From Candidatus Hadarchaeota archaeon (GTDB lineage: Archaea; Hadarchaeota; Hadarchaeia; Hadarchaeales; JAGGTB01), in NCBI GenBank assembly GCA_964384105.1, contig CAYLJV010000002.1:648-64647 (forward strand): a DNA stretch of 64,000 nucleotides, given 5' to 3'. This document shows, in pieces, positions 1-55,901 of this stretch (position 1 is the first letter of the stretch; each line of letters opens with the position of its first letter). The translations under genes were made by a program, and so were the position numbers. The notes under the pieces are model-generated. The model was not told the DNA's origin, did no database searches, and saw only the letters and a list, made by a program, of their open reading frames with translations.

Positions 1-905
1 GCCGGTTATCCTTCGTTGACGCTGCTATAGACAGGGGGGTGGAACTGGATTTCGATCTGGTGGATGGACAGAGCTTCCTCGCCTATCTGCCAGCCTACGG
101 AATAGGCGAGAGAAAGAGGGCGGTGAAGGTCGCCACCTATCACGAGACCTGGATCGGAGACTGGATCGAGAACAAGGGGCTGATCACCGGGATAGGTGGG
201 GAGATATGGGAGCGTCTCTCCCTGGGTAAGGACTGGGACCGGATACTCTCCGTGAGTGAGTTCACTAAAAACAGGTTGGTCGAGAGGGGTGTGGATGGTC
301 AAAAGGTGGACGTCGTTCCCAACGGGGTTGACCTCTCCGAGTTTGAGGAGGTCGAGGTCGAAAAGACGGAGGAACCCACCGTCTGTACCGTTTCGAGGCT
401 GACCGAGAAGAAAAAAGTCGATCTGGTCATGAAGGCCTTTGAAAAGGTTTCCGAAAAGTTCCCCTCCTGCAAGCTTAGGGTGGTCGGTGACGGGCCTGAA
501 TACGACAAGCTGGAGAGGTTGGCGGATGAGCTGGATGCTGATATTGAATTAGTAGGCTACGTTCCTGACAAGAGGGATGTTATAAGAATCATGAAGGAGT
601 CTCACGTTTTTGTATCAGCTTCTGTTCTGGAGGGTTTCGGGGTTTCGGTTATAGAATCTGCCGCCTCCGGGACGCCTTACGTAGTTTCCGATATTGAACC
701 GCATGTTGAGGTTACCAAGGGGGAGAAGGGTGGGTTGGTTTTTAGAAGGGACGATCGGGAGGATCTTGAGGGGAAGATTTCTAGACTCCTAGAGAATAGG
801 GAACTTTACGAGGAAAAGAAGAAGGAATGTAGGTCCTTGGCAAAGGAATACGACTGGGGAAAGGTTGTGGATGGGTTGGAGAGAATTTATTCTGATCTTT
901 TGTGA
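1..905 (+). CDS. Glycosyltransferase family 4 (GT1 fold), C-terminal part; 5' end lies outside the window (open frame continues to position 3, annotated start is GTG at 39)
   Basis: Typical GT4 C-terminal domain residues (E..G.PVV-like segment 'SVIESAASGTPYVVSD', KVD/VVGDGPE pattern). Frame is open to the window edge. Confidence 0.6.
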   Translation, partial: RLSFVDAAIDRGVELDFDLVDGQSFLAYLPAYGIGERKRAVKVATYHETWIGDWIENKGLITGIGGEIWERLSLGKDWDRILSVSEFTKNRLVERGVDGQKVDVVPNGVDLSEFEEVEVEKTEEPTVCTVSRLTEKKKVDLVMKAFEKVSEKFPSCKLRVVGDGPEYDKLERLADELDADIELVGYVPDKRDVIRIMKESHVFVSASVLEGFGVSVIESAASGTPYVVSDIEPHVEVTKGEKGGLVFRRDDREDLEGKISRLLENRELYEEKKKECRSLAKEYDWGKVVDGLERIYSDLL

Positions 906-985: not shown

Positions 986-1963
986 TCAGTCAAAATAACC
1001 CAGATCTTTCAATCTCTTTTTTATCTCCTCTTCCTCATCACCTTGGAAATCTTCCTCTTCATCCTGTTCCTCCAGTTCTCCGTGAGCGTACTTCTCAGAG
1101 TCAAAATCCCCTGAGAGGATTTCCTTGATTATGTCGTAAAAATCTGTCATTTTCGGATTTTTCAAACCTAGTTCAACGCTTGAAGAGTAGAACCCGTAGT
1201 TCATGTCGGTGTGGTCCCCGTAATTTCCTAATCTTTTCATACCGTGATCAGAAACGATCAAGACCAGACCATCGAATCGATTCTTTACCGTGCCAGCTAG
1301 ATCATTCAAAACGCTGTATGTCTCCTTCATCACTTCCATATTTCCTCGATAGACGTGACCCATCCAGTCAGCGGGTCCGAACCAAGCCATGACCAAGTCT
1401 TTATCGAGGTTTTGCAACAGTTCCTTCTTTGTTTTTTTGAAACAGTTCCATACCCCCTCTTGGAACTCGCTGTCTGATATTTTGTCCTCAATCATCTCCT
1501 TCATACTCGTCTCCTTAGACCTCTTTTTGCTGAAGGATGGAATATTTATACCTATCGAGTCACCCACGTTATCAAAAATAGTTTTCTTTTTCAGATCCTT
1601 CGAAACATTTTGACTTTTTACCGTACCCTTGACTCGATCTACGAGACCGAGCTTTCCAAGATGGTGTTTCGTGGATACTGCTATTTTTCCAGAAACGTTC
1701 TTCTTTAGAAATTTGTATGGGGAACGGAAAATCTTCTTAAGAAATCCCGATCCCTCCTCTTCACGAAAATAAGGCTCCAAATTCTCCCCTGTAAGAAAGG
1801 AACCCCAAAGTATGGGCGTGAATACTGTGTAGAAGTCCGAAATATCGACCTTTCCATACTCTTTTTGTTCTAAATTTGGGAAGTCAAACTTCTCAATCAA
1901 ATCAATCTCAAGAGCATCATAGGCTAAAATGCATATTTTTTGATTTTCTTCGATACGATCCAA
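986..1963 (-). CDS. Alkaline-phosphatase-superfamily protein, subtype B (type I phosphodiesterase / nucleotide pyrophosphatase-like). Ends in a CysD-like tail KKRLKDLGYFD after an acidic stretch
   Basis: N-terminal 'ILAYDALE...LWGSFLTGEN' and C-terminal 'VSDHGMK..GDH' motifs resemble the metal-binding / SDHGM motifs of the PF01663-like AP superfamily. Paralogue of 55173..55901. No signal peptide. Confidence 0.5.
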   Translation of the reverse strand: MDRIEENQKICILAYDALEIDLIEKFDFPNLEQKEYGKVDISDFYTVFTPILWGSFLTGENLEPYFREEEGSGFLKKIFRSPYKFLKKNVSGKIAVSTKHHLGKLGLVDRVKGTVKSQNVSKDLKKKTIFDNVGDSIGINIPSFSKKRSKETSMKEMIEDKISDSEFQEGVWNCFKKTKKELLQNLDKDLVMAWFGPADWMGHVYRGNMEVMKETYSVLNDLAGTVKNRFDGLVLIVSDHGMKRLGNYGDHTDMNYGFYSSSVELGLKNPKMTDFYDIIKEILSGDFDSEKYAHGELEEQDEEEDFQGDEEEEIKKRLKDLGYFD

Positions 1964-2063: not shown

Positions 2064-3647
2064 TTGGAGACCTATCTAAACCCGAATCTGAGGATGAACG
2101 AAATGGGGGAAGACGAAAGTATTGCTCAGCAGATTTTCAAGGGTTCCTCAGTCACTTTCATAGGACAGATCGTGGTAGGAGCATCGACATTTCTTCTGAG
2201 AATTTTTTTAGCACGTGGTCTCACCACCTCAGAGTTTGGACTCTTGTTTGCCGTGATTAACCTCATTGGGTTTACAAATGTATTTTCCCATCTGGGGTTA
2301 AATGCAGGAGTCAAAAAATTTGTTTCAAAATACATGGCCAAGGGAAAGCCGGATTTAGCTCGATCTTCTATAATATCCGCGCTTGTTATAGTAACCATAG
2401 CATCTCTGATAGTATCATCCGCTTTTATATTTGCTTCCAACTTCCTTGCCAACTCCTACTTCGGCACGGGGGACGCTGTCCCCATAGTAATAATAATGAG
2501 CATTTGGTTCTTCTTCATGTCCTACTACCATCTCCTAGCCAATGCCCTGCAAGGATTCAAGGACTTTACTGGGAATATCATTGGAAGTGTCTTGAGAGTG
2601 CTCACCCCCTTCCTTGGGGTTCTCATTTTAATCGCCTTTTTAGACCTCACCGCAAATATAGCTGCGTTCCTATATCTATTGGGGCCGATTCTAGCGACGG
2701 TTTTATATTACAGACTCCTTAGAAGACGACACTCAGATATAGTGATCAAAACCCAGGGGGGTTTCTCGACCGAAATAGGTAAGAAAATGATTTTCTTCGG
2801 ACTACCTCTCATCCTGTCAGGAGTTGCGACATCGGTAATAGGACAAATAGATACCATTATGCTCACCGGTCTGCGTTCATTAAGCGATGTAGGACTCTAT
2901 GAGGCGGCAAAGGTGACCAAGACGGGACTCGCTTTCCTGGGTGGCGCACTTGCCACTCCAATGTTCCCCATAGTCTCGGAACTATGGGCGAAAAAGGACA
3001 TCAAAACACTTCGGAAAACCCTCAGCTTCATGACAAAGTTCTCCTTCATCGGTATACTACCCGCAGCACTGGTGTTCTTCGCATTTCCTGAAATCGTAAT
3101 AAGGATCCTCTTCGGATCAGAGTACGTGGCAGCAGCAAACGCTATGAGGATCTTCGCTGGAGGAGCAATCTTTTGGTCTATCGAAACAGTTTTCGTGAGT
3201 TCTCTCAGTGGCATAGGCAAAACAAAGCTGGTGTTGAAAGTCAACGGCATCTCCGCTCTGTTTAACATAGGGGCAAACTATCTTCTGATTCCACTCTATG
3301 GAGCTACCGGAGCAGCTATGGCCACTGGACTTTCCTTCTTGTTAGCCTTTTTACTATCCTTCTATTATTCCAAGAGAGAGATCGGATTTCTTCCAGATTT
3401 TGCTTCCTTGATGAAGGCCGGTGCCGGGAGCCTGCTTACCCTGGGGCTTATCTTCCTTCTAAAGGAGACCTTCCCCCTCCCCACGTGGCCTCTGCTGTTC
3501 ATATCGATGGGTACTGGCCTGATTTTCTACATACTCTGGGTATTCACAACGGGCACAATCAAAAAAGAGGACCTTACAACGATCGAGGAAAATACGCCCG
3601 TTCCCAGCAAAATTATCTCGGTTTTTAGGAAGATATTCTTCAGTTAG
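2064..3647 (+). CDS. Polysaccharide biosynthesis protein / Wzx-like flippase (MOP superfamily), multi-pass membrane protein
   Basis: 527 aa, about 12-14 hydrophobic segments, typical polysaccharide-transporter organisation. Sits inside a GT cluster. Confidence 0.65.
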   Translation: METYLNPNLRMNEMGEDESIAQQIFKGSSVTFIGQIVVGASTFLLRIFLARGLTTSEFGLLFAVINLIGFTNVFSHLGLNAGVKKFVSKYMAKGKPDLARSSIISALVIVTIASLIVSSAFIFASNFLANSYFGTGDAVPIVIIMSIWFFFMSYYHLLANALQGFKDFTGNIIGSVLRVLTPFLGVLILIAFLDLTANIAAFLYLLGPILATVLYYRLLRRRHSDIVIKTQGGFSTEIGKKMIFFGLPLILSGVATSVIGQIDTIMLTGLRSLSDVGLYEAAKVTKTGLAFLGGALATPMFPIVSELWAKKDIKTLRKTLSFMTKFSFIGILPAALVFFAFPEIVIRILFGSEYVAAANAMRIFAGGAIFWSIETVFVSSLSGIGKTKLVLKVNGISALFNIGANYLLIPLYGATGAAMATGLSFLLAFLLSFYYSKREIGFLPDFASLMKAGAGSLLTLGLIFLLKETFPLPTWPLLFISMGTGLIFYILWVFTTGTIKKEDLTTIEENTPVPSKIISVFRKIFFS

Positions 3648-3766: not shown

Positions 3767-4762
3767 GTGAGATACCTGAAAGAATTACCTAAGCAGAAGA
3801 GCCTTATATATAAGGGAGATTGGGACTTCCTAATAATATTGGACGCCTGCCGCTACGATTATTTTAAGAACTTATACAAATCGTATCTGCCCGATGGAAG
3901 TTTAACCAAAGTAGAATCGGAGGGATCCAATACTGCCCAATGGTTGATAAAAACTTTCGATAAACCGATGAGAGACACCATCTATATCTCTTCCACCCCA
4001 TGGGTAAACTCCAAAGTGCCTGTGGAACACGAAAAAATGGGGGAAATAGTAGATGTAAGAAATAGTTTTTCAAAAATTATAGATGTCTGGGATTTCGGCT
4101 GGGAAAACGGAGTAGTTTGGCCGAAAACCATGGTAGAAACTGCAAGAGTAGTTGAAGAAAAAAACTCAAACAAAAATAAAAGGAAGATAATCCATTATAA
4201 GCAGCCGCATTGTCCCTATCTTGAGGAGCTTGAAACCTATCACGGAGAAAAATATCTATCTCACCTCACTAATCTTATCGAATTACCCAACGGATTATTC
4301 AATAAGAAAAATAATGAAAAGGGGAAAAAATCAAGAAACAAGGTTGGAAAAGGAGTGGCGAGGGGAAGAATAGGCAAATTTTTAAAAAACACCTTTGGAA
4401 TGGAATTCTTCACAGAACTCAAAGAGTTTTTAAGATTACCGTCCAGAACTACCGGAGAGGTCATGAAAAGAAAAGGAGTAAAAGGCTTACGAAGGCTTTA
4501 TAATGAAAACCTTAGAAGAGTTCTTCGATCAGTAGCCGAGCTTAAGGAAATATTGGATGGAAAATTAGTGATCACTGCAGACCATGGTGAATTTTTAGGA
4601 GACGTATTTTATGAGGATCTAACGTCCAGACAAAGAAGGCAACTTAATGGCTTTAGAGGTAAGAATAATCAAAATTCGGACAAAAATGTAAAAGGTCCAC
4701 TTTCAGGCCATTCAATCGTAGAACATCCCATACTAAGAGAAGTTCCGTGGTGTATCGCTTAA
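3767..4762 (+). CDS. Alkaline-phosphatase-superfamily protein, subtype A (sulfatase / phosphoethanolamine-transferase-like core), with Lys/Arg-rich insertions
   Basis: 'ILDACRYDYF', 'SEGSNTAQWL' and 'ITADHGEFLG...HPILREVPW' motifs are shared with 4910..5728 and 12325..13176. The ADHGE.LGE motif resembles the sulfatase / EptA-type C-terminal metal site. No signal peptide. Confidence 0.5.
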   Translation: MRYLKELPKQKSLIYKGDWDFLIILDACRYDYFKNLYKSYLPDGSLTKVESEGSNTAQWLIKTFDKPMRDTIYISSTPWVNSKVPVEHEKMGEIVDVRNSFSKIIDVWDFGWENGVVWPKTMVETARVVEEKNSNKNKRKIIHYKQPHCPYLEELETYHGEKYLSHLTNLIELPNGLFNKKNNEKGKKSRNKVGKGVARGRIGKFLKNTFGMEFFTELKEFLRLPSRTTGEVMKRKGVKGLRRLYNENLRRVLRSVAELKEILDGKLVITADHGEFLGDVFYEDLTSRQRRQLNGFRGKNNQNSDKNVKGPLSGHSIVEHPILREVPWCIA

Positions 4763-4909
4763 ATTAATAAGATCAATTAAACGATATTTCTACTCATTTC
4801 AAGATTCTGAATAAATTAAGATAAAAATAAGTTGGTGATAATATCACCTTTCCCAATAGGTATCTGTTTGTATAAAATTTTTTATCCAACGCCAAATAGG
4901 TGTTAAAAC

Positions 4910-5728
4910 ATGAGATCTCAGAAAAATCTTATATACAGAGAAGATTGGAGTTGTCTAATAATTTTGGATGCTTGCCGATACGACTACTTTGAAAACCTTT
5001 ATGAGGATTATCTCCCACGGGGAAGACTTAAAAAAGTTCTTTCCGAGGGAAGCTCTACGGCTGAATGGCTTAGAAAAACATTTAATGACAATAATCTTGA
5101 GGACGTCATATATGTTTCCGCAAACGCTTTTATCAACTCTCAAGGCGCCAACATAGCCGGTTTCGACGGCAGAAAGCATTTTTTTAACGTGATAGACGTG
5201 TGGGATAAATATTGGAACAACGATCTAAAGACGATCCTGCCTGAAAAAGTCAGGAAAACAACCCTTCTTACCAAGGCAAAATTTCCCGATAAAAGAATTA
5301 TCACCCATTTCATGCAGCCACACTATCCTTATCTTTCGATTGGACCTGTTGAAGGAGGGTTAGGGGCTCCTAAAGCCGCCAAACAAAAGGGACTATTAAT
5401 AAAGACCCGGAGGAAAATAGGAAGATTCATAAGAAGAACAGCAGGTTTAGGAGTTTACAAGAAAATAAAAGAATATATCGTTGGCACACGAGAGGCAGGA
5501 AAATTGGAAAAAATAGTACAAGAATATGGAGAATATGAACTGAAACAGGCTTACATGAAAAATTTGATTAGGGTTCTTAAAGAAGCTAGAAAAATCTTGG
5601 AAAGATATCCCGGGAAAGTAGTTATTACCGCAGATCACGGTGAACTACTGGGGGAAGACGGATACGGACATCCTACAGACTCAAATCACCACATTTTGCG
5701 GGAGGTTCCTTGGTGGGGACCTGATTGA
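4910..5728 (+). CDS. Alkaline-phosphatase-superfamily protein, subtype A, tandem paralogue of 3767..4762
   Basis: 'IILDACRYDYFENLY', 'SEGSSTAEWL', 'VITADHGELLGEDGYGHP...HHILREVPWW'. Confidence 0.5.
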   Translation: MRSQKNLIYREDWSCLIILDACRYDYFENLYEDYLPRGRLKKVLSEGSSTAEWLRKTFNDNNLEDVIYVSANAFINSQGANIAGFDGRKHFFNVIDVWDKYWNNDLKTILPEKVRKTTLLTKAKFPDKRIITHFMQPHYPYLSIGPVEGGLGAPKAAKQKGLLIKTRRKIGRFIRRTAGLGVYKKIKEYIVGTREAGKLEKIVQEYGEYELKQAYMKNLIRVLKEARKILERYPGKVVITADHGELLGEDGYGHPTDSNHHILREVPWWGPD

Positions 5729-5785
5729 GTTGAGACTATCATATTTGTCAACTTTTAATTTGACTTATTTTATCCTTGATTTTCT

Positions 5786-6613
5786 TCATCTCAGAAAATA
5801 TTCCCGTTCTTCCTGAGCTTTCTCTACCAGTTCTTTAACAGATTTTTTGAAATTCTCCTCTGCCCTTTCAAAGGTGTATTCAGAGGCGACTTCTTTGGCC
5901 TTTCCCGACATTTTTTGCATTTCTTTTTCATCTTTGTCTATCAGTTCATTTATCTTACTATAGTACTCAACCACCTCGTTCTGTAACACGAGTTCAGGAC
6001 TTACTTTATGGACCATGTTTTTATTCCCCGTATTTTCGCTCACGATTGGAATCAGGCCGGCAGCCATGGCCTCCAAAACGCTATTGGGTGCTGCATCAAA
6101 ACGGGCAGGGTGAACATAAAATGTGGATTTTTTTAGGTAAGGTTTTGGATCAGTATAGCCGATGAGATGAAACTTCGGTTCTTTGACTTCATATTTTTTT
6201 ATATAGGACGGGATTCCTTCCTTTGAACCTAAGATATATGTTTCTCCACTAAAGCCGTCTTGTCGCAATTTCTTATCGACTTCCATCAAAATATCGTTCC
6301 CCTTTCTTGGATAGTGGGTTCCTATAGATACAACATTTGAGGACAGCAAATCCGGTTCAATCTCCAGAAATGACTCTTTCATTAGAAAGGGGTCTACCTT
6401 TCTGCAGAGACATTCGCTGTTTTTCTCCACATATCCTTTTATCATGTCTGAGACTGCAATCACCCCGTCTATATGTCTAGACATCCATCGATGCAAAATC
6501 TTTTGATAACTCGGAAAAAATTCGAAGTCAAAAAATCTGTCATTCGACCTTACAATTAAGATTATTTCTTTACCAAGAATGGCTTTTCGAATAACTATAG
6601 GTAGAATAGCCAT
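5786..6613 (-). CDS. Glycosyltransferase family 4, C-terminal domain. The upstream reading frame stays open to about 6832 without a start codon (possible disrupted gene)
   Basis: GT4 C-terminal motifs ('EAMAAGLIPIVSENTGN'). 73 in-frame sense codons lie upstream of the annotated Met with no ATG/GTG/TTG. An out-of-frame ATG follows a GGAG at about 6823. Confidence 0.5.
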   Translation of the reverse strand: MAILPIVIRKAILGKEIILIVRSNDRFFDFEFFPSYQKILHRWMSRHIDGVIAVSDMIKGYVEKNSECLCRKVDPFLMKESFLEIEPDLLSSNVVSIGTHYPRKGNDILMEVDKKLRQDGFSGETYILGSKEGIPSYIKKYEVKEPKFHLIGYTDPKPYLKKSTFYVHPARFDAAPNSVLEAMAAGLIPIVSENTGNKNMVHKVSPELVLQNEVVEYYSKINELIDKDEKEMQKMSGKAKEVASEYTFERAEENFKKSVKELVEKAQEEREYFLR

Positions 6614-7299
6614 TGTATGGCCCGTACTCAGATAGATATCGTGGTCTGGGAGAACAAAAGCATTTTTTATACATTGTAAAATATCATAGACTTTGTTTCC
6701 AGTTAGGGTTGGATAATTAAATGGACTCGGTGAAAGAGTGTCTGCTACCTGTGTGAAGGCAGAATGCCCGTCAGTCCTTCCTATATCAAGCGTTTCGATC
6801 TTAAAAAATTCTAGCGTATGATCATCTCCTTTCTAATTATTATGGATTACTTTTTCTGGAAATCCTATATTTACTAGACTGTGAATCTATTTGTATTTGA
6901 AAAATCCAAATTTTAAGAAGCTATTGGATTCTTTCTAAAGCTAGTTTGTTAGAGCACTAATAAAAGTGAACACTCAACCTAATCGGGATCTTGAGGTTAG
7001 CCAACATTTCTTTTAAACAAACTCGGCAGGTCCTTCAATATATTTTCCATTTGCTCTCGTAATCAGTTTCAAGTCTTTCAATCATTATAAACAAGGTAAG
7101 AGTAAACATACTTACCGCCCTAAGTTTTCTACAAAGAGTCTACTCAAAGAGAGATAACAACAAAAACTGTAAAATCTGAGACAGATTCCCAACCAAAAAA
7201 TGATTTTTGGATAATAAATCAGTAAGATTCTCTCTAGTACGAACTTTGCATGAAAGCTCAAATAAGTATATCTTCAAATAAATAAAAAGGTGGAAATCC

Positions 7300-7983
7300 G
7301 TGAACCTCAAAAATTTAGAAAATAAGTATATCGGGGATAAAGTAAATAATTACGACAAAAGAAGAAGAAATACAGTACAATGGAAATTAGAACAAAAAAA
7401 GATTGAAAAAATTTTAGAAAAAATCCGAAATAACAAAAATGGGCATTTGAAAGTTCTGGACATCCCCGTCGGAACCGGCCGATTTTTCAAGTCATATAAA
7501 AAACTTGGTTTCAAAGTAACAGGAGTGGATATATCACAGGATATGATTAAGCAAGCAGAAGATCGAAGCAAAGAACTTAATCTGAATGCGAAATTTGAAA
7601 AAGGGAACATATTTAGTATCCCTCACGAAAACAACAGTTTTGATTTATCGGTTTGCACGAGATTTATGAATCACATCGATTTTGACAATTTTAGAAAAGC
7701 GCTAAAGGAAATAAAGAGAGTATCAAAATCTTACATAATAATCGATCTCAAGATTTGGAAGCCATATAACATTTTTACATATTTACTAAAATGCTACAAT
7801 AAAATTAGGGAAATAATAAATTTAGAAAAAAATTTTGACCATCTTCACCGAGAAAGCCAGGTTAAAGAATGTTTTTCCGACAACTCTCTATCAATACAGG
7901 AAACCAAAAAGCTGGAATATGGCAACCTAAGTTTTGACCATTTTATTTTTCATCTGAAAAAAACAAAATACAACGGTCGATGA
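7300..7983 (+). CDS. Class I SAM-dependent methyltransferase
   Basis: Motif I 'VLDIPVGTGRF'. Very AT-rich gene inside the glycan locus. Confidence 0.6.
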   Translation: MNLKNLENKYIGDKVNNYDKRRRNTVQWKLEQKKIEKILEKIRNNKNGHLKVLDIPVGTGRFFKSYKKLGFKVTGVDISQDMIKQAEDRSKELNLNAKFEKGNIFSIPHENNSFDLSVCTRFMNHIDFDNFRKALKEIKRVSKSYIIIDLKIWKPYNIFTYLLKCYNKIREIINLEKNFDHLHRESQVKECFSDNSLSIQETKKLEYGNLSFDHFIFHLKKTKYNGR

Positions 7984-8336
7984 AAGTTGTAAATCTAAAT
8001 GGCATAAATATATCCATCAAAACAATGTAAATTTTGTGCTTTTCATTTGGATGCTTAAATCTGCTACAAAATATTGTTTCCTTTTAAAGAACGATCTGAA
8101 TATTCAATCAATTTGATTCAAAAACAAACCCTTCACCTCCTATCGAAAAAATTTTGGATAATTTATCAGTGACATTCATCTTTTGCTAACATCCTAAATA
8201 ATTCAGGAAAAGATTTTATATCTTTGAAGAGAAAATCTCCTACTCCTTTGCTTCCTTTCTACAGATACTGAATTTCTACAAAAATATAGACGGATTTTTC
8301 AAGATATATGACACATATGAAAATTGAGGAAAAGAT

Positions 8337-9353
8337 ATGAAAGTTTGCCTACTCTCAAGATTTTTCGACCTAAGAAACGGTGGGGTCGGCCGATATTCCA
8401 TGGAGCTATTGAAAAGGCTACAGAGAGAGAAAGATTTAGAAATAAAGACTGTCGATCAAGAGGACGGAATACCATTAGGCGAAGGAATGGCAAAATACCT
8501 CCTGTTCTCCTTTTTTGAGTCACGTTTCAGAATCCCTTCGGCAGATGTCTATCATGCTTTATCGCCCCTGGAAGCCTTACACGCTCCCGCCCCACTTCTC
8601 ACGACCTTCCACGATCTTATCCCAATTCTGAACCCAGGGAAAGTCACAGGGAATCACTTTGGGAGCGTTCTAGAAAGGACAATCAGATCTAATTATTTTA
8701 AGATGGCCTGTTCCCGAGCTATAGATAAATCAGATTTATTAGCTTCAGTCAGTCGACAGACAAAGGAACAACTGGTCGAAGAGTTTGGCGTCGACGAGCA
8801 AAAGATTGAAGTTATCAGACACGGTATAAACCCCAATTTGGAGCCGGAACACAAAAAGGAAGAAATCTTCAGAATCGGAACGCTCAGCTTTCTGGGACCA
8901 AGAAAAAGAATCGACTTACTTATAAAATCATTTCTGGAAGCAGACGTCGACGGAGAGTTGACGATAGCTGGAAGTGGAAGGATGATAAAAGAGCTAAAAA
9001 GGGTAGCAGACGGTGACAATCGTGTGAAGTTTCTCGGGTTCGTCCCGGAGGAAGAAGTTAAAGACTTTTATAATTCCCTTGATGTTTTTGTTTTTCCTAC
9101 GAAGTTTGAGGGCTATGGTCTACCGATAGTGGAGGCGATGGCATGCAAGGTTCCTGTAGTGACACTTTCAGACGCCATTATTCCGTCAGATATCAAGGAG
9201 AAAACAATTGTTACGGATGATCTAAGAAGTTGGCTCAAAAATCCCAGCTTTTCGGAAATAAATCTTGATGAAAACTATGAATTCGCCGAAAAGCATGATT
9301 GGGAAAAATGTGCGAAAAAACATAGAGACATTTACGAGAAACTTCGAAAATGA
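8337..9353 (+). CDS. Glycosyltransferase family 4
   Basis: 'FVFPTKFEGYGLPIVEAMACKVPVV' is the canonical GT4 E-x7-E region. Confidence 0.65.
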   Translation: MKVCLLSRFFDLRNGGVGRYSMELLKRLQREKDLEIKTVDQEDGIPLGEGMAKYLLFSFFESRFRIPSADVYHALSPLEALHAPAPLLTTFHDLIPILNPGKVTGNHFGSVLERTIRSNYFKMACSRAIDKSDLLASVSRQTKEQLVEEFGVDEQKIEVIRHGINPNLEPEHKKEEIFRIGTLSFLGPRKRIDLLIKSFLEADVDGELTIAGSGRMIKELKRVADGDNRVKFLGFVPEEEVKDFYNSLDVFVFPTKFEGYGLPIVEAMACKVPVVTLSDAIIPSDIKEKTIVTDDLRSWLKNPSFSEINLDENYEFAEKHDWEKCAKKHRDIYEKLRK

Positions 9354-9404
9354 CTAAATTAAAAGGGACTAAAAAATAGTATCAAAAAGCTTCATGATGG
9401 TAAA

Positions 9405-10670: not shown

Positions 10671-10771
10671 ATTCGGCGGGATTTAAAAAACTTGGATTTC
10701 TATAAAACCTCCAATTATTACCATAGAAAAATAAAACATATTCTGCCAAGTCACCCCCCACCTATAATCTC

Positions 10772-11800: not shown

Positions 11801-12324
11801 TATAACACTCGTCTAAATTTTTATTTCTTCTGAAGATGTAAGTGGAGATTCATTAAATAAATTTCTAATCTCAATAATAGGTTTCACGTACTTTTCCCAA
11901 ATATCCACTTTTGGAATCTTTCTCATTTATTATTTCTAATTTCATCCCTTAAATGGAAAATAATACCATATCTAACTTATTTCCCCAAACAAGATCATAG
12001 ATTCTGAACAGATAGTCATAGGATGGAATAACGAAAGAAACACAGAGGTTCTTCAAAGGTCTAAAAGGCATTTTTGAAGACATTATTTGAATTTCCAAAG
12101 AACCAGAAGTCTCAAAGATTGAAAAAGACTCGCGAGTGCGACAATAACGAAAATAAATGTTAAGATGACTATTTTTATTACTAACGCTCAGAGAAATAAC
12201 TGGTTGTAGACGAAAAGTTTTATCTATTTTGATATCAAGACAGCATTTTAAATGAAAGGCATTCTTTATAAATGTTCAAAACTTGTGAAGCTTATCCCAT
12301 AAAAATTGAATCAGGCGATTAAGA

Positions 12325-13176
12325 ATGAAATCCCAGAAAAAACTAATTCAAAATAGAGAATGGGATGTATTGATACTGCTAGATGCATGTCGATATGATA
12401 TCTTCAAAAAATGCTTTAAAAGGCATATTGAAGGCACTTTGAAGAAAGTGATTTCTGAGGGGTCCTGTACGCTTGATTGGCTTAAAGGAACTTTTAAGGA
12501 GAGCCATTTTAACGACGTTGTATATGTATCTGGAAATCCTTATATCAATTCTAAAGGAATCAGTATTCATGGATTCGATGGAACTAATCATTTTTATAAA
12601 ATTATTGACGCGTGGGAAAGTGGATGGATAGACGAGATAAAAACTGTTAAACCAGATGTAATGGGAAAAAAGACCCGACTTGCTAGGGCTAAGTACCCTG
12701 GTAAAAAAATAATCTCCCATTTCGCACAACCTCATTATCCATATCTATCGGAAAAGCTTGTCTATATGGGAGGCTTTACCGACGCTTTTTACAAAGCAAC
12801 AAATGAAAGAAATAGAATCGGGCTATTTTCACAAAAAATTAGAGAAATAATCGGGAGGATAATGAACAGAGTTTTAGGTTGGAGACTTACCCAAATGATA
12901 AGAAAAAAACTAAGCTTGATTGAATTAATTGGTGATCCTAGATTAAAAAAGTTCGCCCAAAAATATGGAACGACTTATCTTAAAAATGCATATGAGGAAA
13001 ATCTCATACTAGCTCTTACTGAAGTTCAAAATATTATTGATCGACTTCCCGACAATAAAATCGTAATAACATCTGATCACGGAGAATTACTGGGAGAAGA
13101 TGGAATCTATGGTCACCCAGAAGGACTGAATCATAACATACTGATTGAGGTTCCCTGGTTGGAAATAAATCACTGA
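12325..13176 (+). CDS. Alkaline-phosphatase-superfamily protein, subtype A
   Basis: 'LILLDACRYDIF', 'SEGSCTLDWL', 'VITSDHGELLGEDGIYGHPEGLNHNILIEVPW'. Confidence 0.5.
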   Translation: MKSQKKLIQNREWDVLILLDACRYDIFKKCFKRHIEGTLKKVISEGSCTLDWLKGTFKESHFNDVVYVSGNPYINSKGISIHGFDGTNHFYKIIDAWESGWIDEIKTVKPDVMGKKTRLARAKYPGKKIISHFAQPHYPYLSEKLVYMGGFTDAFYKATNERNRIGLFSQKIREIIGRIMNRVLGWRLTQMIRKKLSLIELIGDPRLKKFAQKYGTTYLKNAYEENLILALTEVQNIIDRLPDNKIVITSDHGELLGEDGIYGHPEGLNHNILIEVPWLEINH

Positions 13177-13285: not shown

Positions 13286-14226
13286 TCAGACAACATTTCT
13301 AAACCACTCAATAAACTCCTCAAGACCTCTCCCCAAATCGTAAACCGGCTCCCAGCCTAACTCTTTTTCAGCATTGGAAACGTCTGCCCAAGTGTGCCTA
13401 GCATCCCCCTCCCTCTGTTGAGTATGAACTACCTCACAATCACTTTCAGTGAGATTCCTAATCCTATCAACTAACTCGTTTACCGAAATACTCTCTCCAC
13501 TCCCAATATTATAAGCCTCCCCATCACTCACTTTTCTCTCCAAACAAAGGTTCTGAGCATCCACAATATCCTCAATATAGGTGAAGTCCCTCGTCTGCTC
13601 CCCATCTCCAAAAACTTTTATCTTCTCCCCCTTCAACGCCCTCCTAGTGAAAATAGATATAGCTAAATCAGGCCTCATTCTAGGTCCGTATACAGTAAAA
13701 TACCTCAAAGAAACTGTCGGAATCCCATAAATTTCACTGTAGACCCTCACGTAATTCTCCGCCGCGAGCTTTGACACCCCGTAGGGTGATACAGGAATCT
13801 TTCTGGACCCCTCCTTGAAAGGTAAATCTGGACTCCTGCCATAAACACTACTTGAAGAAGCAAACAAAAAGTGTTCTACCCCCTTCTTCCTAGCCGCTTC
13901 CAGAAGATTCAGGGTACCCCTGTGTTCACAGAGTGAGGCTTCTCTGGATTCTCGACCGAAACCCTGACCCCAGCCTGAGCCGCCTGATGATTAATAGCGT
14001 CCACGTCTTCCACAAGCCCAAAAACCAAATCCCTATCTCGAATGTCACCCCTCACGAACTCAAATGAATCGTAATCCCCCAGAATATCTAAATTCCTTTC
14101 CTTCAACAAAACATCGTAATATGGATCGAGATTATCCAAACAAACAACTTCATGTTCCTTCTCCAAAAGAGATTCACAGGTGTGACTTCCAATAAAACCG
14201 GCTCCTCCAGTAACCAGTATCCGCAC
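13286..14226 (-). pseudogene. NAD-dependent epimerase/dehydratase (UDP-sugar 4-epimerase family) split by a -1 frameshift in a GGGG run near 13868-13912 (pseudogene or homopolymer sequencing error)
   Basis: N-terminal ORF 13909..14226 carries '[11 protein letters not shown]'. C-terminal ORF 13286..13867 starts 'FASSSSVYG'. The intervening bases read [19 protein letters not shown] in the C-terminal frame, and one extra G in 'acagggg' would join the two frames. Confidence 0.7.
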
Positions 14227-14228
14227 TC

Positions 14229-15011
14229 TTAATCCTCGCCGAAGTGGTTATCGTCTCCCTGCGCAAGCCGATCAGCCTCCGCAAGTGACTCGAACGTCCC
14301 TATATCGTATCGATTGCCCTCGAATACATAACCGTAAAGCCCTCCCTCTCCCTTTCTAAGGGACTCAACCGCGTCCGTAAGCCACAGTTCTCCGCCTTTT
14401 CCGGGCTCTATCCTATCTATATATTTGAACAATTTTGCATTAATTATCATTAGACCGGCGATATTCAACCAGTGGTCATCCCTCCTGTAGGGTTGAGCCT
14501 CCTCCATGGTCGGCTTCTCGATCATCCCCACCACCACATTCTCCTCAGTGAGTTTAACCACTCCGAACCTCTTTGGGTCATCCACGGGATGAAGCACCAG
14601 CGTTCCACTTCCGTTCTTCTCCTCGTGAAACCTAACTATGTCCTTCATCGCACTGTAAGGGGAGATATAATTGTCCCCATACATTATAGCGAAGTCCTCG
14701 TCCTCTTCTACGAAGTCTCTAGCCAGAGAAACAGCGTGAGCCGTACCCCTTGGCTCTTCCTGAACCCGGTAGTAAATATCCAAATCCAGTCGCTCTCCAG
14801 AACCGAGATAATCAATTATCGCCTGCTTCTTCCTCCCCACAACAATGAGAACATCTTCCACACCACCGTGCTTCAGTACGTTCAATACGTGCTCTATCGT
14901 GGGCTTCTTCCCAACCCGAACGATCTCCTTTGGAATCGCATAAGTTATGGGTCTCAAACGGGTGCCCTCCCCCGCCGCGAGAACGACAGCCTTCTTAACC
15001 ACCCAAATCAC
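14229..15011 (-). CDS. Sugar-1-phosphate nucleotidyltransferase (glucose-1-phosphate thymidylyl/uridylyltransferase-like)
   Basis: '[23 protein letters not shown]' matches the G-x-G-T-R-L-x-P-x-T signature. A 4-nt overlap with the upstream gene suggests an operon. Confidence 0.7.
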
Positions 15012-15892
15012 TCCCTCACACCATATCTCTCGGCCATGTACTCATTGATTTCCTCGACAGCCTTCAACAGCTCAGGCTCCTCCCCCACTTCCTCTTCTGC
15101 AAAGGCTATAAGTGCCCTCAAATCCTTCGGCAGACACTTACCACCAAAAGCCATCCCGTAAACCGTACCATACTTACCAATTCTATGGTCCATAGCCACG
15201 GCCTTTGCAACCCTGTCCGAATCTATATCTAATTCTTTACAGATCTTGAAAATCTGATTCCAATACGAGATCTTGGTCGCCAACATACAGTTGCTGGCAT
15301 ATTTTATCATTTCAGCTTCACTAAGTTCAGTTCTCACGATAGGAACATCAAGCCTTTCGTAAACTTTCTCCAGTTCGTCTCCCGACCTATCATCGTATTC
15401 CCCTATCACTATCCTGTCCGAGGAAAACCCCTTCTCGAATCTCCTTTCATCAGTCCAAGTGTCCGAGATCTCAGTCAAAAACTCCGGATTCATACAGACC
15501 CCAATATCCTCACCGATCTTTTTATCAGAAATCTTCTCGAGAACAGGAATAACAAGTTCCTCGGTCGTGGTCGTAACCACGGTACTTTTGACGACAACGA
15601 GATGATAGTCGTCCTTCTCTCTCAGTACCCTTGCAAGGTCTTCAACCGCTTCCTCCAAGTAATCTAAGTTAATCTTACCCTCTTCGGTAGGTGTGGGAAC
15701 GCAGAGAAAAGTGACATCGGAATCGAGAACGACTTCTTCCAGGTCAGTAGAGGCTTCATAACCCTGTTGGTTCAACGCTTCTACCCTTTCTTCAGAAATA
15801 TCATGGAAAACGACATCGTGTCCAAGACTAATCAGGCCCTTTCCCGTTTTCTCACCGACCCAACCGCTCCCAACGATGCTTATTCGAGTCAA
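15008..15892 (-). CDS. UDP-glucose / GDP-mannose dehydrogenase family protein with N-terminal and central domains only (no C-terminal UDP-binding domain)
   Basis: 'ISIVGSGWVGEKTG' NAD-binding motif and catalytic Cys motif 'FGGKCLPKDLRAL'. 294 aa versus about 430 aa in full-length UgdH. The stop overlaps the next gene. Confidence 0.6.
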   Translation of the reverse strand: MTRISIVGSGWVGEKTGKGLISLGHDVVFHDISEERVEALNQQGYEASTDLEEVVLDSDVTFLCVPTPTEEGKINLDYLEEAVEDLARVLREKDDYHLVVVKSTVVTTTTEELVIPVLEKISDKKIGEDIGVCMNPEFLTEISDTWTDERRFEKGFSSDRIVIGEYDDRSGDELEKVYERLDVPIVRTELSEAEMIKYASNCMLATKISYWNQIFKICKELDIDSDRVAKAVAMDHRIGKYGTVYGMAFGGKCLPKDLRALIAFAEEEVGEEPELLKAVEEINEYMAERYGVRE

Positions 15893-52496: not shown

Positions 52497-52712
52497 GTGG
52501 AACAATTGGGCAAAAAAAGTATTTCAATATCTGAGAAACTATACAAAAAGATCAAAGACAGAGTCGAAGGAACAGGATTTGAGTCTGTAGAAGAATACGT
52601 AGATTACGTTCTGAGAGAAATTGTTACTGAAGACGAAGAAGAAGAAGAATTTTCTGAAGAAGACGAAGAAAAAGTCAGAGAAAGGCTCCGAGCACTCGGT
52701 TATATGGACTAA
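52497..52712 (+). CDS. Small RHH (CopG-like) protein with an acidic linker and a C-terminal RLRALGYMD tail
   Basis: 'ISISEKLYKKIKDRVEGTGFESVEEYVDYVLREI' RHH pattern. An alternative TTG start at 52506 is preceded by AGGTGG. Confidence 0.45.
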   Translation: MEQLGKKSISISEKLYKKIKDRVEGTGFESVEEYVDYVLREIVTEDEEEEEFSEEDEEKVRERLRALGYMD

Positions 52713-52864: not shown

Positions 52865-53092
52865 ATGGGAAAGAAAAAATCCAAGAAAACCAAATTCACC
52901 ACAGTCTCTATTCCGGTCCCTCTGTTCGAAAAGGCCAAAAAACAGATTGAAGGAACCGGCTTCACTTCAGTCTCAAGCTATGTAGGCTATATACTTCGCG
53001 AAGTAATCGCCAAAAGTAAAGAAAAACCATTCACCGAAGAAAGTGAAAAAGAAATCAGAGAAAAATTGAAAGCACTTGGTTATCTGGAGTGA
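52865..53092 (+). CDS. Small RHH (CopG-like) protein with a C-terminal KLKALGYLE tail, translationally coupled to cysD
   Basis: 'VSIPVPLFEKAKKQIEGTGFTSVSSYVGYILREVI'. Paralogue of 52497..52712. The stop overlaps the cysD GTG start. Confidence 0.45.
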   Translation: MGKKKSKKTKFTTVSIPVPLFEKAKKQIEGTGFTSVSSYVGYILREVIAKSKEKPFTEESEKEIREKLKALGYLE

Positions 53093-53913
53093 TAAACGTG
53101 AAAGAAGAGAAAAGATTAAATCATCTTGACGAACTAGAAAGTGAATCGGTCTTCATCATCAGAGAGGCCTACAAAAAATATGACAACCTGGGAATGCTTT
53201 GGTCGGCCGGAAAAGACTCTACAACGCTTGCTTACCTCGCAAAGAAGGCATTTTTAGGAAAAGTACCAATTCCTGCTATCTATATAGACACAGGATATCA
53301 CTTCCAAGAAATGTACGATTTTAGAGATAAACTAGCGGAAAAATGGGGCTTGAATTTGATAAATGCAAAAAATGAAGAAGCTGATGAGGAGGGAATCACA
53401 CCTGAAGACAAGCTGGATTGCTGCGGAAAAAGAAAAACAAAGGCCTTAAAGGACATAATAGCAAAACACGGATTCGATGCGCTATTAGTTGGAATAAGAA
53501 GAGATGAGCACGGCGTTCGGGCGAAAGAACGTACCTTCAGTCCACGAGACCGAGATTTCCAGTGGAATTACAAAGATCAACCTCCCGAATTATGGGACCA
53601 GTACAAATCAGAGAAGGAATCAGGACAGCACCTCAGAGTTCACCCACTACTTTCATGGACAGAGCTCGACGTATGGAAATATATACAGAGAGAAGACCTA
53701 CCGGTCAATCCACTCTATTTCGCCAAGAATGGTAAAAGATTCAGATCTCTAGGATGTAAACCTTGCACCGACCCCGTAGAAAGCGAAGTGAAAAGCGTTG
53801 AAGGTATGATAAAAGAGGTTAAAGAAAGCGAGATCGGTGAGAGAAGTGGGAGAGCTCAGGATAAAGAGGAGGCCCATGCTATGCAAAAGCTACGAAGTTT
53901 AGGCTACATGTGA
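53089..53913 (+). CDS. cysD: Sulfate adenylyltransferase subunit 2 (PAPS-reductase-family PP-loop protein)
   Basis: 'WSAGKDSTTLAYLAKKAF' PP-loop, 'IDTGYHFQEMYDFRD', 'RRDEHGVRAKERTFSPRDRDFQWNYKDQPPELW'. As recalled, these align closely with E. coli CysD, including the C-terminal ..LGYM tail. Confidence 0.8.
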   Translation: MINVKEEKRLNHLDELESESVFIIREAYKKYDNLGMLWSAGKDSTTLAYLAKKAFLGKVPIPAIYIDTGYHFQEMYDFRDKLAEKWGLNLINAKNEEADEEGITPEDKLDCCGKRKTKALKDIIAKHGFDALLVGIRRDEHGVRAKERTFSPRDRDFQWNYKDQPPELWDQYKSEKESGQHLRVHPLLSWTELDVWKYIQREDLPVNPLYFAKNGKRFRSLGCKPCTDPVESEVKSVEGMIKEVKESEIGERSGRAQDKEEAHAMQKLRSLGYM

Positions 53914-53935: not shown

Positions 53936-55162
53936 ATGGAAGATGAAGTTTTAAGATTTGTATTGGTTGGTCATGTAGACCATGGGAAAAGTACTCTCAT
54001 AGGTAGGCTCTTCTACGATACAGACTCTCTACCCGCAGGCAAATATGAGGAGATAAAGACGGCCTGTGAGGCAATGGGGAGAGATTTCGAATTTGGATAC
54101 GTGATGGACCACTTGGAAGAAGAGAGAACCCAAGGCGTAACAATTGATACTGCTCAAACTTTCTTCGATACTGACAAGAGAAGCTATAACATAATAGATG
54201 CCCCCGGCCACGTGGAGTTTGTCAAAAACATGATAACAGGCGCCAGTCAGGCGGAAGCGGCTATCCTCATAGACGATGTTTCCGAAGGCGTTCAAGAACA
54301 AACGAGAAGACACGCCTATATTCTAAGCATGTTGGGGCTAGAACAAGTAATCGTCGTCCTGAATAAAATGGACCTAGTAGGTTATGATCGAGAAAAATTC
54401 GAAGATGTCAAGAAAAAATTACTTCATTTCCTGAACTCAATTGGAATCGAACCAACTTACGTAATTCCCATCTCTGCAAAAGAAGGAGACTTCGTAGCCA
54501 AAAGAATAGAAAATTTGGGCTGGTACGATGGGCCAACAGTTCTCGAAGCTCTCGACACCTTCAAGAAAAAGCCATCACCAACAGAAAAACCACTCAGACT
54601 ACCCGTTCAGGACGTCTATAAGTTCAATGATACTCGTGCCGCTGTTGGAAAAGTAGAAAGTGGGATAATAAGAGAAGGAGACGAGATATTGGTAATGCCC
54701 GGAAATAGGAAAACAACCGTAAAAAAACTCGTCGAATACAACCGGGAACCCACAGAAGCCATAGCTGGAAAAAGTATAGGTATCTCCACTTCGGATAAAC
54801 TATTCCTAGATCGAGGAAATGTGATCTCCGATCCAGAGAACCCCCCCAGGATAACTGACACCATCAAAGGTCACATATTTTGGATGGATGAAAAACCCTA
54901 CGAGAATGGCGAAAGAATAAAATTCAAATGCTCAACACAAGAGGTCATGAGCGAGTTAGAAATAGAAGAAGTGCTAGACTCTTCGACCCTCGAAGTCGTT
55001 AGTGAAAACGGAGGCAATAGAATAGAAAACCGGCAAATAGCAAATGTTATCATTAAGACCTCAAAGGCCGTGGTAATTGAGAACTTTAATAATATTCAAG
55101 GCCTTGGAAGGTTCGTTCTCGAAAGAAAAGACACCTGCGCAGGCGGGATAATAACCGAGTAG
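53936..55162 (+). CDS. cysN: Sulfate adenylyltransferase subunit 1 (GTPase, EF-Tu-like)
   Basis: 'VGHVDHGKSTLIGRL', 'DAPGH', 'NKMD' GTPase motifs with CysN-like context. Confidence 0.8.
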   Translation: MEDEVLRFVLVGHVDHGKSTLIGRLFYDTDSLPAGKYEEIKTACEAMGRDFEFGYVMDHLEEERTQGVTIDTAQTFFDTDKRSYNIIDAPGHVEFVKNMITGASQAEAAILIDDVSEGVQEQTRRHAYILSMLGLEQVIVVLNKMDLVGYDREKFEDVKKKLLHFLNSIGIEPTYVIPISAKEGDFVAKRIENLGWYDGPTVLEALDTFKKKPSPTEKPLRLPVQDVYKFNDTRAAVGKVESGIIREGDEILVMPGNRKTTVKKLVEYNREPTEAIAGKSIGISTSDKLFLDRGNVISDPENPPRITDTIKGHIFWMDEKPYENGERIKFKCSTQEVMSELEIEEVLDSSTLEVVSENGGNRIENRQIANVIIKTSKAVVIENFNNIQGLGRFVLERKDTCAGGIITE

Positions 55163-55172
55163 GTGCTTAGAA

Positions 55173-55901
55173 ATGACCGTAGTATTTGCCATAGACGCCC
55201 TTGAATACAAAAAAGTCGAAGATTTTGATTGTAAAAACTTAAAGCAAACGACTTATGGTAAAACCGATATCTCCGAGTTTGATCAGCCTAGAACGATGGT
55301 TCTTTGGAGTTCATTTATGACCGGCGAAAACAAAGAAGACGAGATCCTAGCGAAAGGAGATAAGGAGATGTGGAACACCAAATTTTCAATAGAGGATACC
55401 TTCTTCTCGAGTTTCGGAGATCCAAAAATAATAGATCTCCCTGGCTTTTCATACGATCGAGAACAGCATGAAAAAGAAAGAGAACTTCTGAAGAAATTTT
55501 TCGAAGAAACAAATGATAAAGATCAAAAGAAGGAGATAAGAAAAGAGTATAACCAACATGGACTAAAACACCATAGAAAAATAAAAGAAGAATTTCTAGA
55601 GTCCCTAGAGGCCGACCATGACTTCTTGCTCGGATATTTCTCGGCCGCGGATGTCGTAGGCCATCTAAATTTTGGAAACAATACTCTCATGAAAATGATA
55701 TACGAAGACCTCGACGATATCGCATTAGAAATAAAGAAAATAAGAGATGACCACATACTTGTTCTCTCGGATCATGGAATGAAAGGAGTAGGTATGTTTG
55801 GAGACCACAGTGATTATGGTTTTTGGTCATTTAATAGCAAATGTGAATTAGAAACCCCAAAATTAACAGATTTTGCTGATTTTCTAAAAAAATTAGACTA
55901 A
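55173..55901 (+). CDS. Alkaline-phosphatase-superfamily protein, subtype B, last gene of the RHH-cysD-cysN operon
   Basis: 'VVFAIDALEY...VLWSSFMTGEN' and 'ILVLSDHGMKGVGMFGDHSD'. Paralogue of 986..1963. SD AGGTG lies 9 nt upstream, 10 nt after the cysN stop. Confidence 0.5.
   Translation: MTVVFAIDALEYKKVEDFDCKNLKQTTYGKTDISEFDQPRTMVLWSSFMTGENKEDEILAKGDKEMWNTKFSIEDTFFSSFGDPKIIDLPGFSYDREQHEKERELLKKFFEETNDKDQKKEIRKEYNQHGLKHHRKIKEEFLESLEADHDFLLGYFSAADVVGHLNFGNNTLMKMIYEDLDDIALEIKKIRDDHILVLSDHGMKGVGMFGDHSDYGFWSFNSKCELETPKLTDFADFLKKLD

Follow-up and report, generated by a model that had tools for sequence, protein, structure and literature searches.

The DNA analysed here, which we call the window, is a stretch of 64,000 nucleotides from Candidatus Hadarchaeota archaeon (assembly GCA_964384105.1, contig CAYLJV010000002.1, positions 648 to 64,647 of the forward strand), with 42% G+C and a single tRNA-Arg as the only RNA gene found. 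Near its start, on the reverse strand, is the gene that concerns us (986..1963, stop codon included). It encodes a cytoplasmic protein of 325 residues, referred to below as the target, that belongs to the alkaline phosphatase (AP) superfamily, resembles nucleotide pyrophosphatases/phosphodiesterases (NPPs), lies in a cluster of surface-glycan genes and carries a short C-terminal tail. About 51 kb away, in an operon with the sulfate-activation genes cysD and cysN, is a second, tail-less member of the same family, which we call AP-B. A first-pass annotation, made from the letters of the window, had described the two proteins as paralogues and proposed two kinds of linkage to CysDN: operon membership for the one, and a tail shared with CysD for the other.

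The target gene is real. Its open reading frame (ORF) is intact, its product is identical to that of a called gene on a 257-kb NCBI contig, and its orthologues share 43-80% identity (the closest named relative, at 70%, comes from a Hadarchaeota metagenome-assembled genome, MAG). Apart from a weak PG_binding_2 match, the sole Pfam family of the target is PF01663, with a score of 21.8 bits that falls below the gathering threshold of 23; the operon paralogue passes with 26.4 bits, and nearly all homologues of the target carry a precomputed PF01663 match. No NCBIfam model matches either protein, and the target, whose fold is of the AP type, has no match to the canonical Sulfotransfer_1/2/3 Pfam families. 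The AlphaFold2 (AF2) model, built on 67 homologues, is confident (predicted local distance difference test score, pLDDT, 90.6; predicted template modelling score, pTM, 0.90) and has the alpha/beta core of the AP superfamily (residues 9-285; 1109..1939 on the reverse strand, alignments A1-A3, codons verified), with NPPs as the closest solved folds.

In the alignment of these 67 sequences, D199 (1367-1369), H203 (1355-1357), D239-H240 (1244-1249) and H251 (1211-1213) are invariant, and D16 (1916-1918) and T49 (1817-1819) are at least 90% conserved; all coordinates are on the reverse strand. The predicted bimetal site thus has the ligand pattern Asp; Asp-x3-His; Asp-His; His, together with a candidate Ser/Thr nucleophile that opens a helix, T49 being the first residue of helix 49-58. 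These residues presumably match those of the Xac NPP, a correspondence of pattern rather than of residue-level superposition. After the nucleophile helix comes a mostly helical insertion (residues 60-125; 1589..1786, reverse strand; helices 73-90, 92-104 and 108-112 in the model) that is a gap in the operon paralogue, both in BLASTP and in alignment A1, and that may be a cap or an acceptor-binding element. The target sequence contains neither the C/S-x-P-x-R formylglycine motif of type I sulfatases (PF00884) nor an N-terminal hydrophobic segment or signal peptide. The best explanation of sequence and model together is that the target is a soluble, catalytically competent NPP-like enzyme of the AP superfamily. 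The superfamily assignment of the first-pass annotation is therefore upheld, and the structure prediction that it had suggested as a check locates a candidate nucleophile and a predicted metal site; the active site, with these residues conserved, is not degenerate.

The operon paralogue (55173..55901, forward strand) is a minimal AP-B protein of 242 residues that lacks both the tail and the equivalent of target residues ~60-125. BLASTP aligns it with the target at 31% identity (E 6e-39), and the two fall into sister clades of a neighbour-joining (NJ) tree, in agreement with the earlier description of them as paralogues. Its gene begins 10 nt past the cysN stop codon on the same strand, from which co-transcription with cysN is inferred. 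Upstream, cysD (53089..53913, forward strand) encodes sulfate adenylyltransferase subunit 2 (Pfam PAPS_reduct, 2.1e-45; NCBIfam CysD, 4.9e-103), and cysN (53936..55162, forward strand) encodes the EF-Tu-like GTPase subunit, which has no tail (Pfam GTP_EFTU, 3.7e-49; NCBIfam TIGR02034, 340.6 bits against a cut-off of 336.1). Both proteins are 76-82% identical to those of two other Hadarchaeota loci (L004, L009). A motif scan of the window revealed, directly upstream of cysD, two small forward-strand genes for ribbon-helix-helix (RHH)/CopG-like proteins, both called as genes in the public record and both with an acidic linker and a tail like that of the target: protein 1 (52497..52712, 71 residues, ending FSEEDEEKVRERLRALGYMD) and protein 2 (52865..53092, 75 residues, ending FTEESEKEIREKLKALGYLE), whose stop overlaps the cysD start by 4 nt. 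Homologues of adenosine 5'-phosphosulfate (APS) kinase, Sat, DHH, TauE and SQD1 are all absent from the window.

Across genomes, the position of the operon paralogue recurs. One scan of species-representative genomes, with a profile from the narrower alignment A2, yielded 41 loci, and in 13 of these an AP-B gene directly adjoins cysN or cysD (L002, L004, L005, L007, L009, L011, L012, L013, L014, L015, L018, L039 and L040). A tailed AP-B gene lies 6.5 kb from cysDN in L001, another AP-B gene is beside a distant CysD-like gene in L038, and the metagenome locus L048 has the same cysDN/AP-B operon. Orthologues of the window's operon paralogue come directly after cysN in L004, L005, L007, L009, L011, L013, L014, L015, L018, L040 and L048, and in several loci the stop and start codons at the cysN/AP-B junction overlap. 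The conserved core of the operon is RHH(tail)-cysD-(TauE or HIT or nothing)-cysN-AP-B, and an APS kinase gene is missing from these operons, as is one for a phosphatase of 3'-phosphoadenosine 5'-phosphate (PAP). Hosts include Hadarchaeota, Bathyarchaeia, Woesearchaeota, Iainarchaeum, Micrarchaeota, Diapherotrites, Methanoperedens and Methanosarcinaceae, and one host MAG is binned as Cloacimonadota. In the NJ tree the operon copies form one clade, nearest to which are the L001 protein and then the clade of the target. The co-occurrence check that the first-pass annotation had called for thus comes out in favour of a link: AP-B is best explained as a dedicated partner of prokaryotic sulfate activation, and we regard a functional tie between the target or its family and that process as highly probable.

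Some of these operons show further peculiarities. In L039 (6625-7429) two overlapping ORFs of 93 and 188 residues take the place of a single AP-B gene behind cysN, which suggests a frameshift in that MAG. A histidine triad (HIT)-family gene, identified from its HxHxHxx motif alone, lies between cysD and cysN in the Micrarchaeota locus L018 (8305-8751). Near the cysDN operons of L039 (2747-3412, reverse strand) and L011 (3798-4391, reverse strand) are genes for proteins with a PAPS-reductase domain (PAPS, 3'-phosphoadenosine 5'-phosphosulfate) that are ~24% identical to CysD and end in ...KKRLKALGYI or ...KEKLKKLGYL.

The tail of the target consists of an acidic linker, AHGELEEQDEEED (residues 293-305; 1049..1087, reverse strand), and a 20-residue module, FQGDEEEEIKKRLKDLGYFD (residues 306-325; 989..1048, reverse strand), made up of a helix, acidic in its N-terminal half and basic and hydrophobic in its C-terminal half, and an L-G-Y-F-D hook after it. 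The protein ends in ...EEEEIKKRLKDLGYFD, which fits [RK]-L-x-x-L-G-Y-h-(D/E) within three residues of the stop, and residues 310-320 form a helix in the AF2 model (pLDDT ~86). The consensus of the module, over ~20 residues, is F/Y-x-x-(D/E)4-5-x-[IV]-[KR]-x-[RK]-L-[KR]-x-L-G-Y-h-(D/E); L-G-Y is invariant in every carrier, and acidic residues are close by. All 12 orthologues (P0002-P0013) keep an acidic linker, variable in sequence, followed by ...EEEIKKRLxxLGYF(D). In a second tailed clade (P0016-P0030) the linker is short and the ending is the same, and further tailed clades are represented by L029, L034 and P0052; most other AP-B members are tail-less. The earlier statement that the target 'acquired' its tail goes further than these data: in the NJ tree the tail is found in at least four AP-B clades, and it may have been either gained or lost.

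The comparison with CysD needs qualification as well. The tail noted in the first-pass annotation is real and conserved, but its likeness to the native CysD C-terminus, KEEAHAMQKLRSLGYM (53863-53910, forward strand), is limited to the core [KR]L[KR]xLGY[FM]; the upstream hydrophobic residue is offset by one (I at -7 in the target, M at -6 in CysD), and the ER-x-GR element of CysD is absent from the target. The tails of the RHH proteins match the whole 20-residue module and are much the better counterparts. Since the end of the window CysD aligns with the C-terminus of Pseudomonas syringae CysD (1ZUN_A), it is ancestral, and from the sequences either common origin or convergence of the target and CysD tails would be possible. 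In the papers examined that cite the CysD-CysN structure 1ZUN, the CysD tail is not mentioned.

How unusual such an ending is can be gauged in two ways. The fetched sequence, 733 kb in all, contains 3168 ORFs, of which 50 have the ending L..[LMIV]GY.{0,2}; 0.77 would be expected from the internal rate of the motif and 0.375 from shuffled termini. Because this sample is biased by the choice of loci, an exhaustive hmmsearch was run with a 32-position tail profile against 1.84 billion protein-cluster representatives. It yielded 498 representatives at E<=1e-3; of the ones listed, almost all are matched at their C-terminal end. Two 40-residue tail profiles, A5 and A6, returned only proteins of up to 70 residues and are therefore no measure of how many longer carriers exist; A6, in which the tails had been doubled artificially, and A4, in which some tails had received an extra D, served as search devices only.

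The carriers in the 733 kb are CysD, RHH and AP-B proteins, Phosphodiest-family proteins of 475-516 residues, an APS kinase, a fragment of a sulfatase-like protein and two proteins like PAPS reductase, with one likely chance match and no other unrelated family. In the exhaustive search, the majority of matches are RHH proteins of ~70 residues. Among the best 150 matches, 20 carriers are longer than 100 residues, and Pfam gives a name to 13 of them. Ten of these 13 are either APS kinases (five) or members of the AP family (four Phosphodiest proteins of 500-562 residues and one sulfatase-like fragment). The other named ones are an Lrp/AsnC regulator, a DnaB_N fragment and a protein with 11 PG_binding_1 repeats; the remaining seven have no significant Pfam match, one of them showing a weak, sub-threshold DUF7557. 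The carriers of this length among the best 150 include a low-complexity acidic protein with sub-threshold Pfam matches only.

Several observations qualify individual carriers. In P0299 (1083 residues), helix 1 of PG_binding_1 ('LQ..L..LGY') fits the tail profile in seven stretches, a likeness that is probably convergent; the same L..LGY turn accounts for the weak PG_binding_2 match of the target. The APS kinases of L035 and L051 seem to end natively in a similar helix, and other APS kinases have a clearly appended module. The L035 'tail' was set aside as an example of an appended module, since the profile of the family covers it and it could belong there natively. Permeases of the TauE/SafE family whose genes are part of cysDN operons carry the module internally, within a loop, e.g. 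DTEHNIVKRLGKLGYLPRS (L007 7939-8757, L011 7938-8756, L015 18-803, L018 10986-11804, L039 4657-5475 and L048 8308-9126).

The RHH-tail proteins, the most numerous carriers, also tie the module to sulfate activation. Many homologues of the window pair carry PF01402 or are named CopG, Arc or MetJ. The AF2 model of protein 1 has a strand region, two helices (13-23 and 31-47) and, set apart from these, a helix for the tail (54-67); the top Foldseek hits are RHH, ParD and NikR proteins but are not significant (E>0.6). Orthologues of protein 2 are upstream of cysD in L004, L009, L005, L018, L012 and others, and relatives occur in Archaea and some Bacteria, at CysDN- and Sat-type loci alike. All RHH-tail contexts inspected hold sulfate-activation genes: the cysDN operons, L046, L048, L051, L053 and L054. 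The gene order is TauE, RHH-tail and Sat-type ATP sulfurylase in L046 and L047 (Archaeoglobaceae); RHH-Sat-DHH-Phosphodiest (451 residues)-APS kinase in L051 (a metagenome contig, 8001-12139); and, with overlapping starts, Sat-DHH-Phosphodiest (466 residues)-APS kinase-RHH-tail in L053 (an Elusimicrobiota MAG, 3905-8204). In L054, a Phosphodiest gene (684 residues) and an RHH-tail gene are beside genes for PAPS reductase, sirohaem and sulfite reductase, and a Sat/APS-kinase fusion is encoded close by. The L051 and L053 operons contain every step of a sulfation pathway except a recognisable transferase, and the AP-family gene is their sole unassigned enzyme-sized gene.

A tail-less AP-family gene adjoins the RHH-tail gene in all inspected contexts but L046, where there is no recognisable AP gene within 8 kb of the RHH-tail gene beside Sat. 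Conversely, the fetched stretches around tailed AP-B genes contain no RHH-tail ORF. The tail is thus either on the AP enzyme itself or on a neighbouring RHH protein, a fused-versus-split pattern, and the small RHH-tail proteins have the look of regulators or adaptors devoted to sulfate activation. As RHH-tail genes are found next to Sat-type ATP sulfurylase genes too, where CysN is missing, the tail is not tied to CysDN alone and marks sulfate activation in general. Of the two kinds of linkage proposed earlier, then, operon membership and the shared tail both stand, but the second extends beyond CysDN; and the argument from the tail is stronger than it was, because the same module is found on RHH ORFs, APS kinases, AP-family enzymes and PAPS-reductase-like proteins.

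As to other known motifs, we take likenesses to the MIM1 motifs of ESCRT-III and to the C-terminal tails of the ribosomal P stalk, which bind EF1A-type GTPases, to be leads and nothing further. A MinD-like membrane-targeting helix is, we presume, less likely in view of the invariant L-G-Y. A resemblance to the proteasomal HbYX motif was rejected, the Tyr not being penultimate in most carriers. As a guide to docking of the tail in cis, pLDDT is of no use, as the helix is predicted confidently in the target (~86) and in the RHH monomer (80-89) alike.

The surroundings of the target itself point to glycan synthesis. Convergent with it is a GT4 glycosyltransferase gene (39..905, forward strand) and divergent from it a Wzx/MurJ-type polysaccharide flippase gene (2064..3647, forward strand; Pfam Polysacc_synt/MurJ), both assigned by Pfam; the flippase/AP-B/GT4 trio, with the same neighbours, recurs in L042 and L055. 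The window cluster has at least five GT4 genes and genes for a methyltransferase, a sugar nucleotidyltransferase (NTP_transferase, 14229..15011), a UDP-glucose dehydrogenase and an epimerase. Tailed orthologues are always in glycan clusters (four independent contexts beyond the window), and more distant tailed members are among GT2, GT4, methyltransferase and deacetylase genes. Several clusters have more than one AP-B paralogue (L010, L016, L017, L021, L023 and L029). The gene neighbourhoods listed, those of tailed AP-B and RHH-tail genes among them, contain no canonical sulfotransferase domain.

The same cluster of the window contains three paralogous AP/PglZ-like ORFs ('DACRYD ... ADHGE'; 3767..4762, 4910..5728 and 12325..13176, forward strand) that match no Pfam or NCBIfam family above threshold, and relatives of these adjoin AP-B genes in L008, L024, L025 and L034. 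The NAD-dependent sugar epimerase is distributed over two ORFs (13286..13867 and 13909..14226, reverse strand), one with the N-terminal Rossmann portion and one with the C-terminal portion, and the UDP-glucose dehydrogenase ORF (15008..15892, reverse strand) has no match to the C-terminal domain; frameshifts, pseudogenes or assembly errors may be responsible in both cases.

Taken together, these contexts suggest a model in which the target transfers a sulfuryl group to a glycan through Thr49, probably from APS, and in which the tail is a peptide for docking or regulation. We hold this reading tentatively, a little short of an even chance. The target would be a sister type of the operon AP-B that moved into a surface-glycan cluster with GT4 enzymes, a Wzx flippase and UDP-glucose dehydrogenase. 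AP-B would take activated sulfate made by CysDN and pass its sulfuryl group on to a sugar in the growing glycan, by way of a covalent intermediate on Thr49 at the bimetal site, while the helical insertion (residues 60-125) would bind the acceptor. APS itself is proposed as the direct donor because the cysDN/AP-B operons have no APS kinase and no PAP phosphatase. The tail, on its acidic linker, would dock its carrier onto a common partner in the sulfate-activation machinery or onto the AP domain, and would give the target in cis what the operon paralogue gets from tail-bearing neighbours. That AP-B acts on activated sulfate at all is suggested by genomic association together with one published precedent, the AP-superfamily glycan sulfotransferases Agl30/Agl31 of Halobacterium salinarum (compared below).

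Several points weigh against this reading. NPP-type enzymes with a Thr nucleophile normally attack phosphorus rather than sulfur, and with APS the products would be AMP and sulfate, that is, hydrolysis. Many glycan-cluster AP-B genes have neither a tail nor a sulfate-activation gene nearby. Homologues of the UDP-sulfoquinovose synthase SQD1 are found in five cysDN/AP-B loci (L035 2523-4082, E 1.7e-82 to PDB 1i24, and members of the same family in L001, L012, L013 and L039), so part of the activated sulfate may go to sulfoquinovose via sulfite, with no need for a sulfotransferase; this route, however, leaves AP-B unexplained. CysN as a universal receptor of the tail is a candidate weakened by the RHH-tail genes beside Sat-type operons. 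Finally, Agl30/Agl31 are sulfatase-like and on a different branch of the superfamily from NPP-like AP-B, and the paper on them names no donor, the words PAPS, donor and phosphosulfate being absent (PMC11980604).

The chemistry of NPPs leads to the rival that has to be taken most seriously, in which AP-B proteins are hydrolases serving the pathway: a nucleotide pyrophosphatase/phosphodiesterase or a phosphatase that removes pyrophosphate (PPi), PAP or excess APS or PAPS, and so pulls or buffers sulfate activation and the synthesis of nucleoside diphosphate sugars. The closest solved folds cleave nucleotide pyrophosphate bonds, relatives bear the database name 'AlkP superfamily pyrophosphatase or phosphodiesterase', and a PPi-releasing enzyme is present in both contexts, CysD in the one and the NTP_transferase in the other; the operon type, without the cap insertion, would suit a small substrate. 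Yet several AP-B paralogues in one glycan cluster would be expected of enzymes that modify specific positions more than of a housekeeping hydrolase, a DHH phosphatase is already encoded next to the AP-family gene of Sat-type operons, and cleaving APS beside its GTP-paid synthesis would be futile. We consider a hydrolytic role unlikely, if well worth keeping in mind. It is harder to credit that sulfate is irrelevant and that the target adds or trims a phosphodiester-linked decoration (e.g. a phospho-alcohol from a cytidine diphosphate-activated donor), with the tail as a generic helical peptide for oligomerisation or regulation. The AP-B genes in glycan clusters far from any sulfate gene would then be accounted for, as would the fit of the tail profile to an Lrp/AsnC regulator, a DnaB_N fragment and PG_binding_1 helix 1; against it stand the nearness of the cysDN-operon clade to the target clade, the concentration of the module on APS kinases, AP-family enzymes and RHH proteins in the exhaustive search, the sulfate-activation genes at every inspected RHH-tail locus and the lack, in 733 kb of loci, of any unrelated carrier family bar one likely chance match. 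We judge it improbable.

A different question is whether the tail might be a substrate or signal, with AP-family enzymes modifying or demodifying its Tyr (sulfation, adenylylation) on RHH proteins, CysD, APS kinase and themselves to give feedback, and with RHH proteins behaving like ParD-type antitoxins, whose C-terminal helix binds an enzyme. The invariant L-G-Y with acidic residues near it, the fused-versus-split pattern, the module in a loop of the TauE permeases and the resemblance of RHH plus C-terminal helix to ParD (top in Foldseek, though not significant) are all compatible with such a scheme. It is purely inferential, however: no modified peptide is known, the RHH-tail gene of L046 is beside Sat with no AP partner within reach, and a docking motif would be expected to keep its Tyr just as strictly. 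We rate it as very improbable. The boldest version would join the two ideas: a portable helix-LGY module, presented by CysD, APS kinase, RHH proteins, AP-fold enzymes and the loop of the permease, that assembles or controls a sulfation machine, its Tyr transiently sulfated or adenylylated as a swinging-arm relay or feedback switch between sulfate activation and a new class of NPP-fold, APS-dependent sulfotransferases, with RHH-tail proteins as carriers or sensors and not simple repressors. This is a speculation to which we likewise give very little credence.

Archaeal surface glycans and lipids are often sulfated, and canonical sulfotransferases are scarce in Archaea. A compact, widespread AP-fold partner of CysDN in operons without APS kinase makes the direct use of APS a concrete hypothesis, and the 20-residue tag offers a way to recognise members of such systems in archaeal and some bacterial genomes. 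If sulfuryl transfer by AP-B is true, it would be a new sulfotransferase mechanism and would explain why cysDN is kept in genome-reduced DPANN archaea.

Among known systems, the NPPs (Xanthomonas NPP and ENPP1/4/6/7; PF01663) have in common with AP-B the set of seven bimetal and Thr-nucleophile residues. Identity is 15-19%, however, and AP-B proteins are shorter (242-325 residues, against ~380 or more), cytoplasmic without a signal peptide, and fixed genomic partners of CysDN or of glycan clusters; the target has, in addition, its own helical insertion and C-terminal tail. The RHH-tail proteins resemble ParD/CopG-type RHH antitoxins in having an N-terminal RHH, a linker and one helix, the structural matches not being significant, but they have no adjacent toxin gene and share their tail with enzymes of one metabolic pathway. 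Mnt-type RHH repressors, with their C-terminal oligomerisation helix, offer another comparison. The literature searched contains no account of an RHH regulator of sulfate adenylyltransferase matching this system, and nothing on AP-superfamily PAPS sulfotransferases or DPANN sulfation that describes it; within that literature, the NPP-like Thr-nucleophile family of 240-325 residues, its place after cysN without APS kinase, the tail module and the RHH-tail family seem to be new.

The closest functional precedent is provided by Agl30/Agl31 (VNG1056C/VNG1057C) of the H. salinarum aglB cluster, reported in 2025. They are AP-superfamily, sulfatase-like proteins whose role as N-glycan sulfotransferases was established by gene deletion and by expression in a heterologous host; they were the first glycan sulfotransferases of Archaea and have the AP fold, and Agl31 is soluble and cytosolic (PMC11980604). 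Like the target, they are AP-superfamily proteins inside an archaeal glycosylation cluster (a comparison at the level of superfamily and context only), and because of them a sulfotransferase role for an AP-fold protein of a glycan cluster has precedent. For the operon type, the nearest parallel is the CysN-CysC fusion, or trifunctional sulfate-activating complex, of bacteria such as Mycobacterium tuberculosis (CysD plus CysNC), in which CysN has an enzyme that consumes APS linked, physically or genetically, to its C-terminal side (PMC4373884). AP-B takes this position behind cysN, and the stop and start codons often overlap, but it has an AP fold rather than that of a P-loop kinase and is a separate polypeptide; in its tailed members, the tie may be a short peptide.

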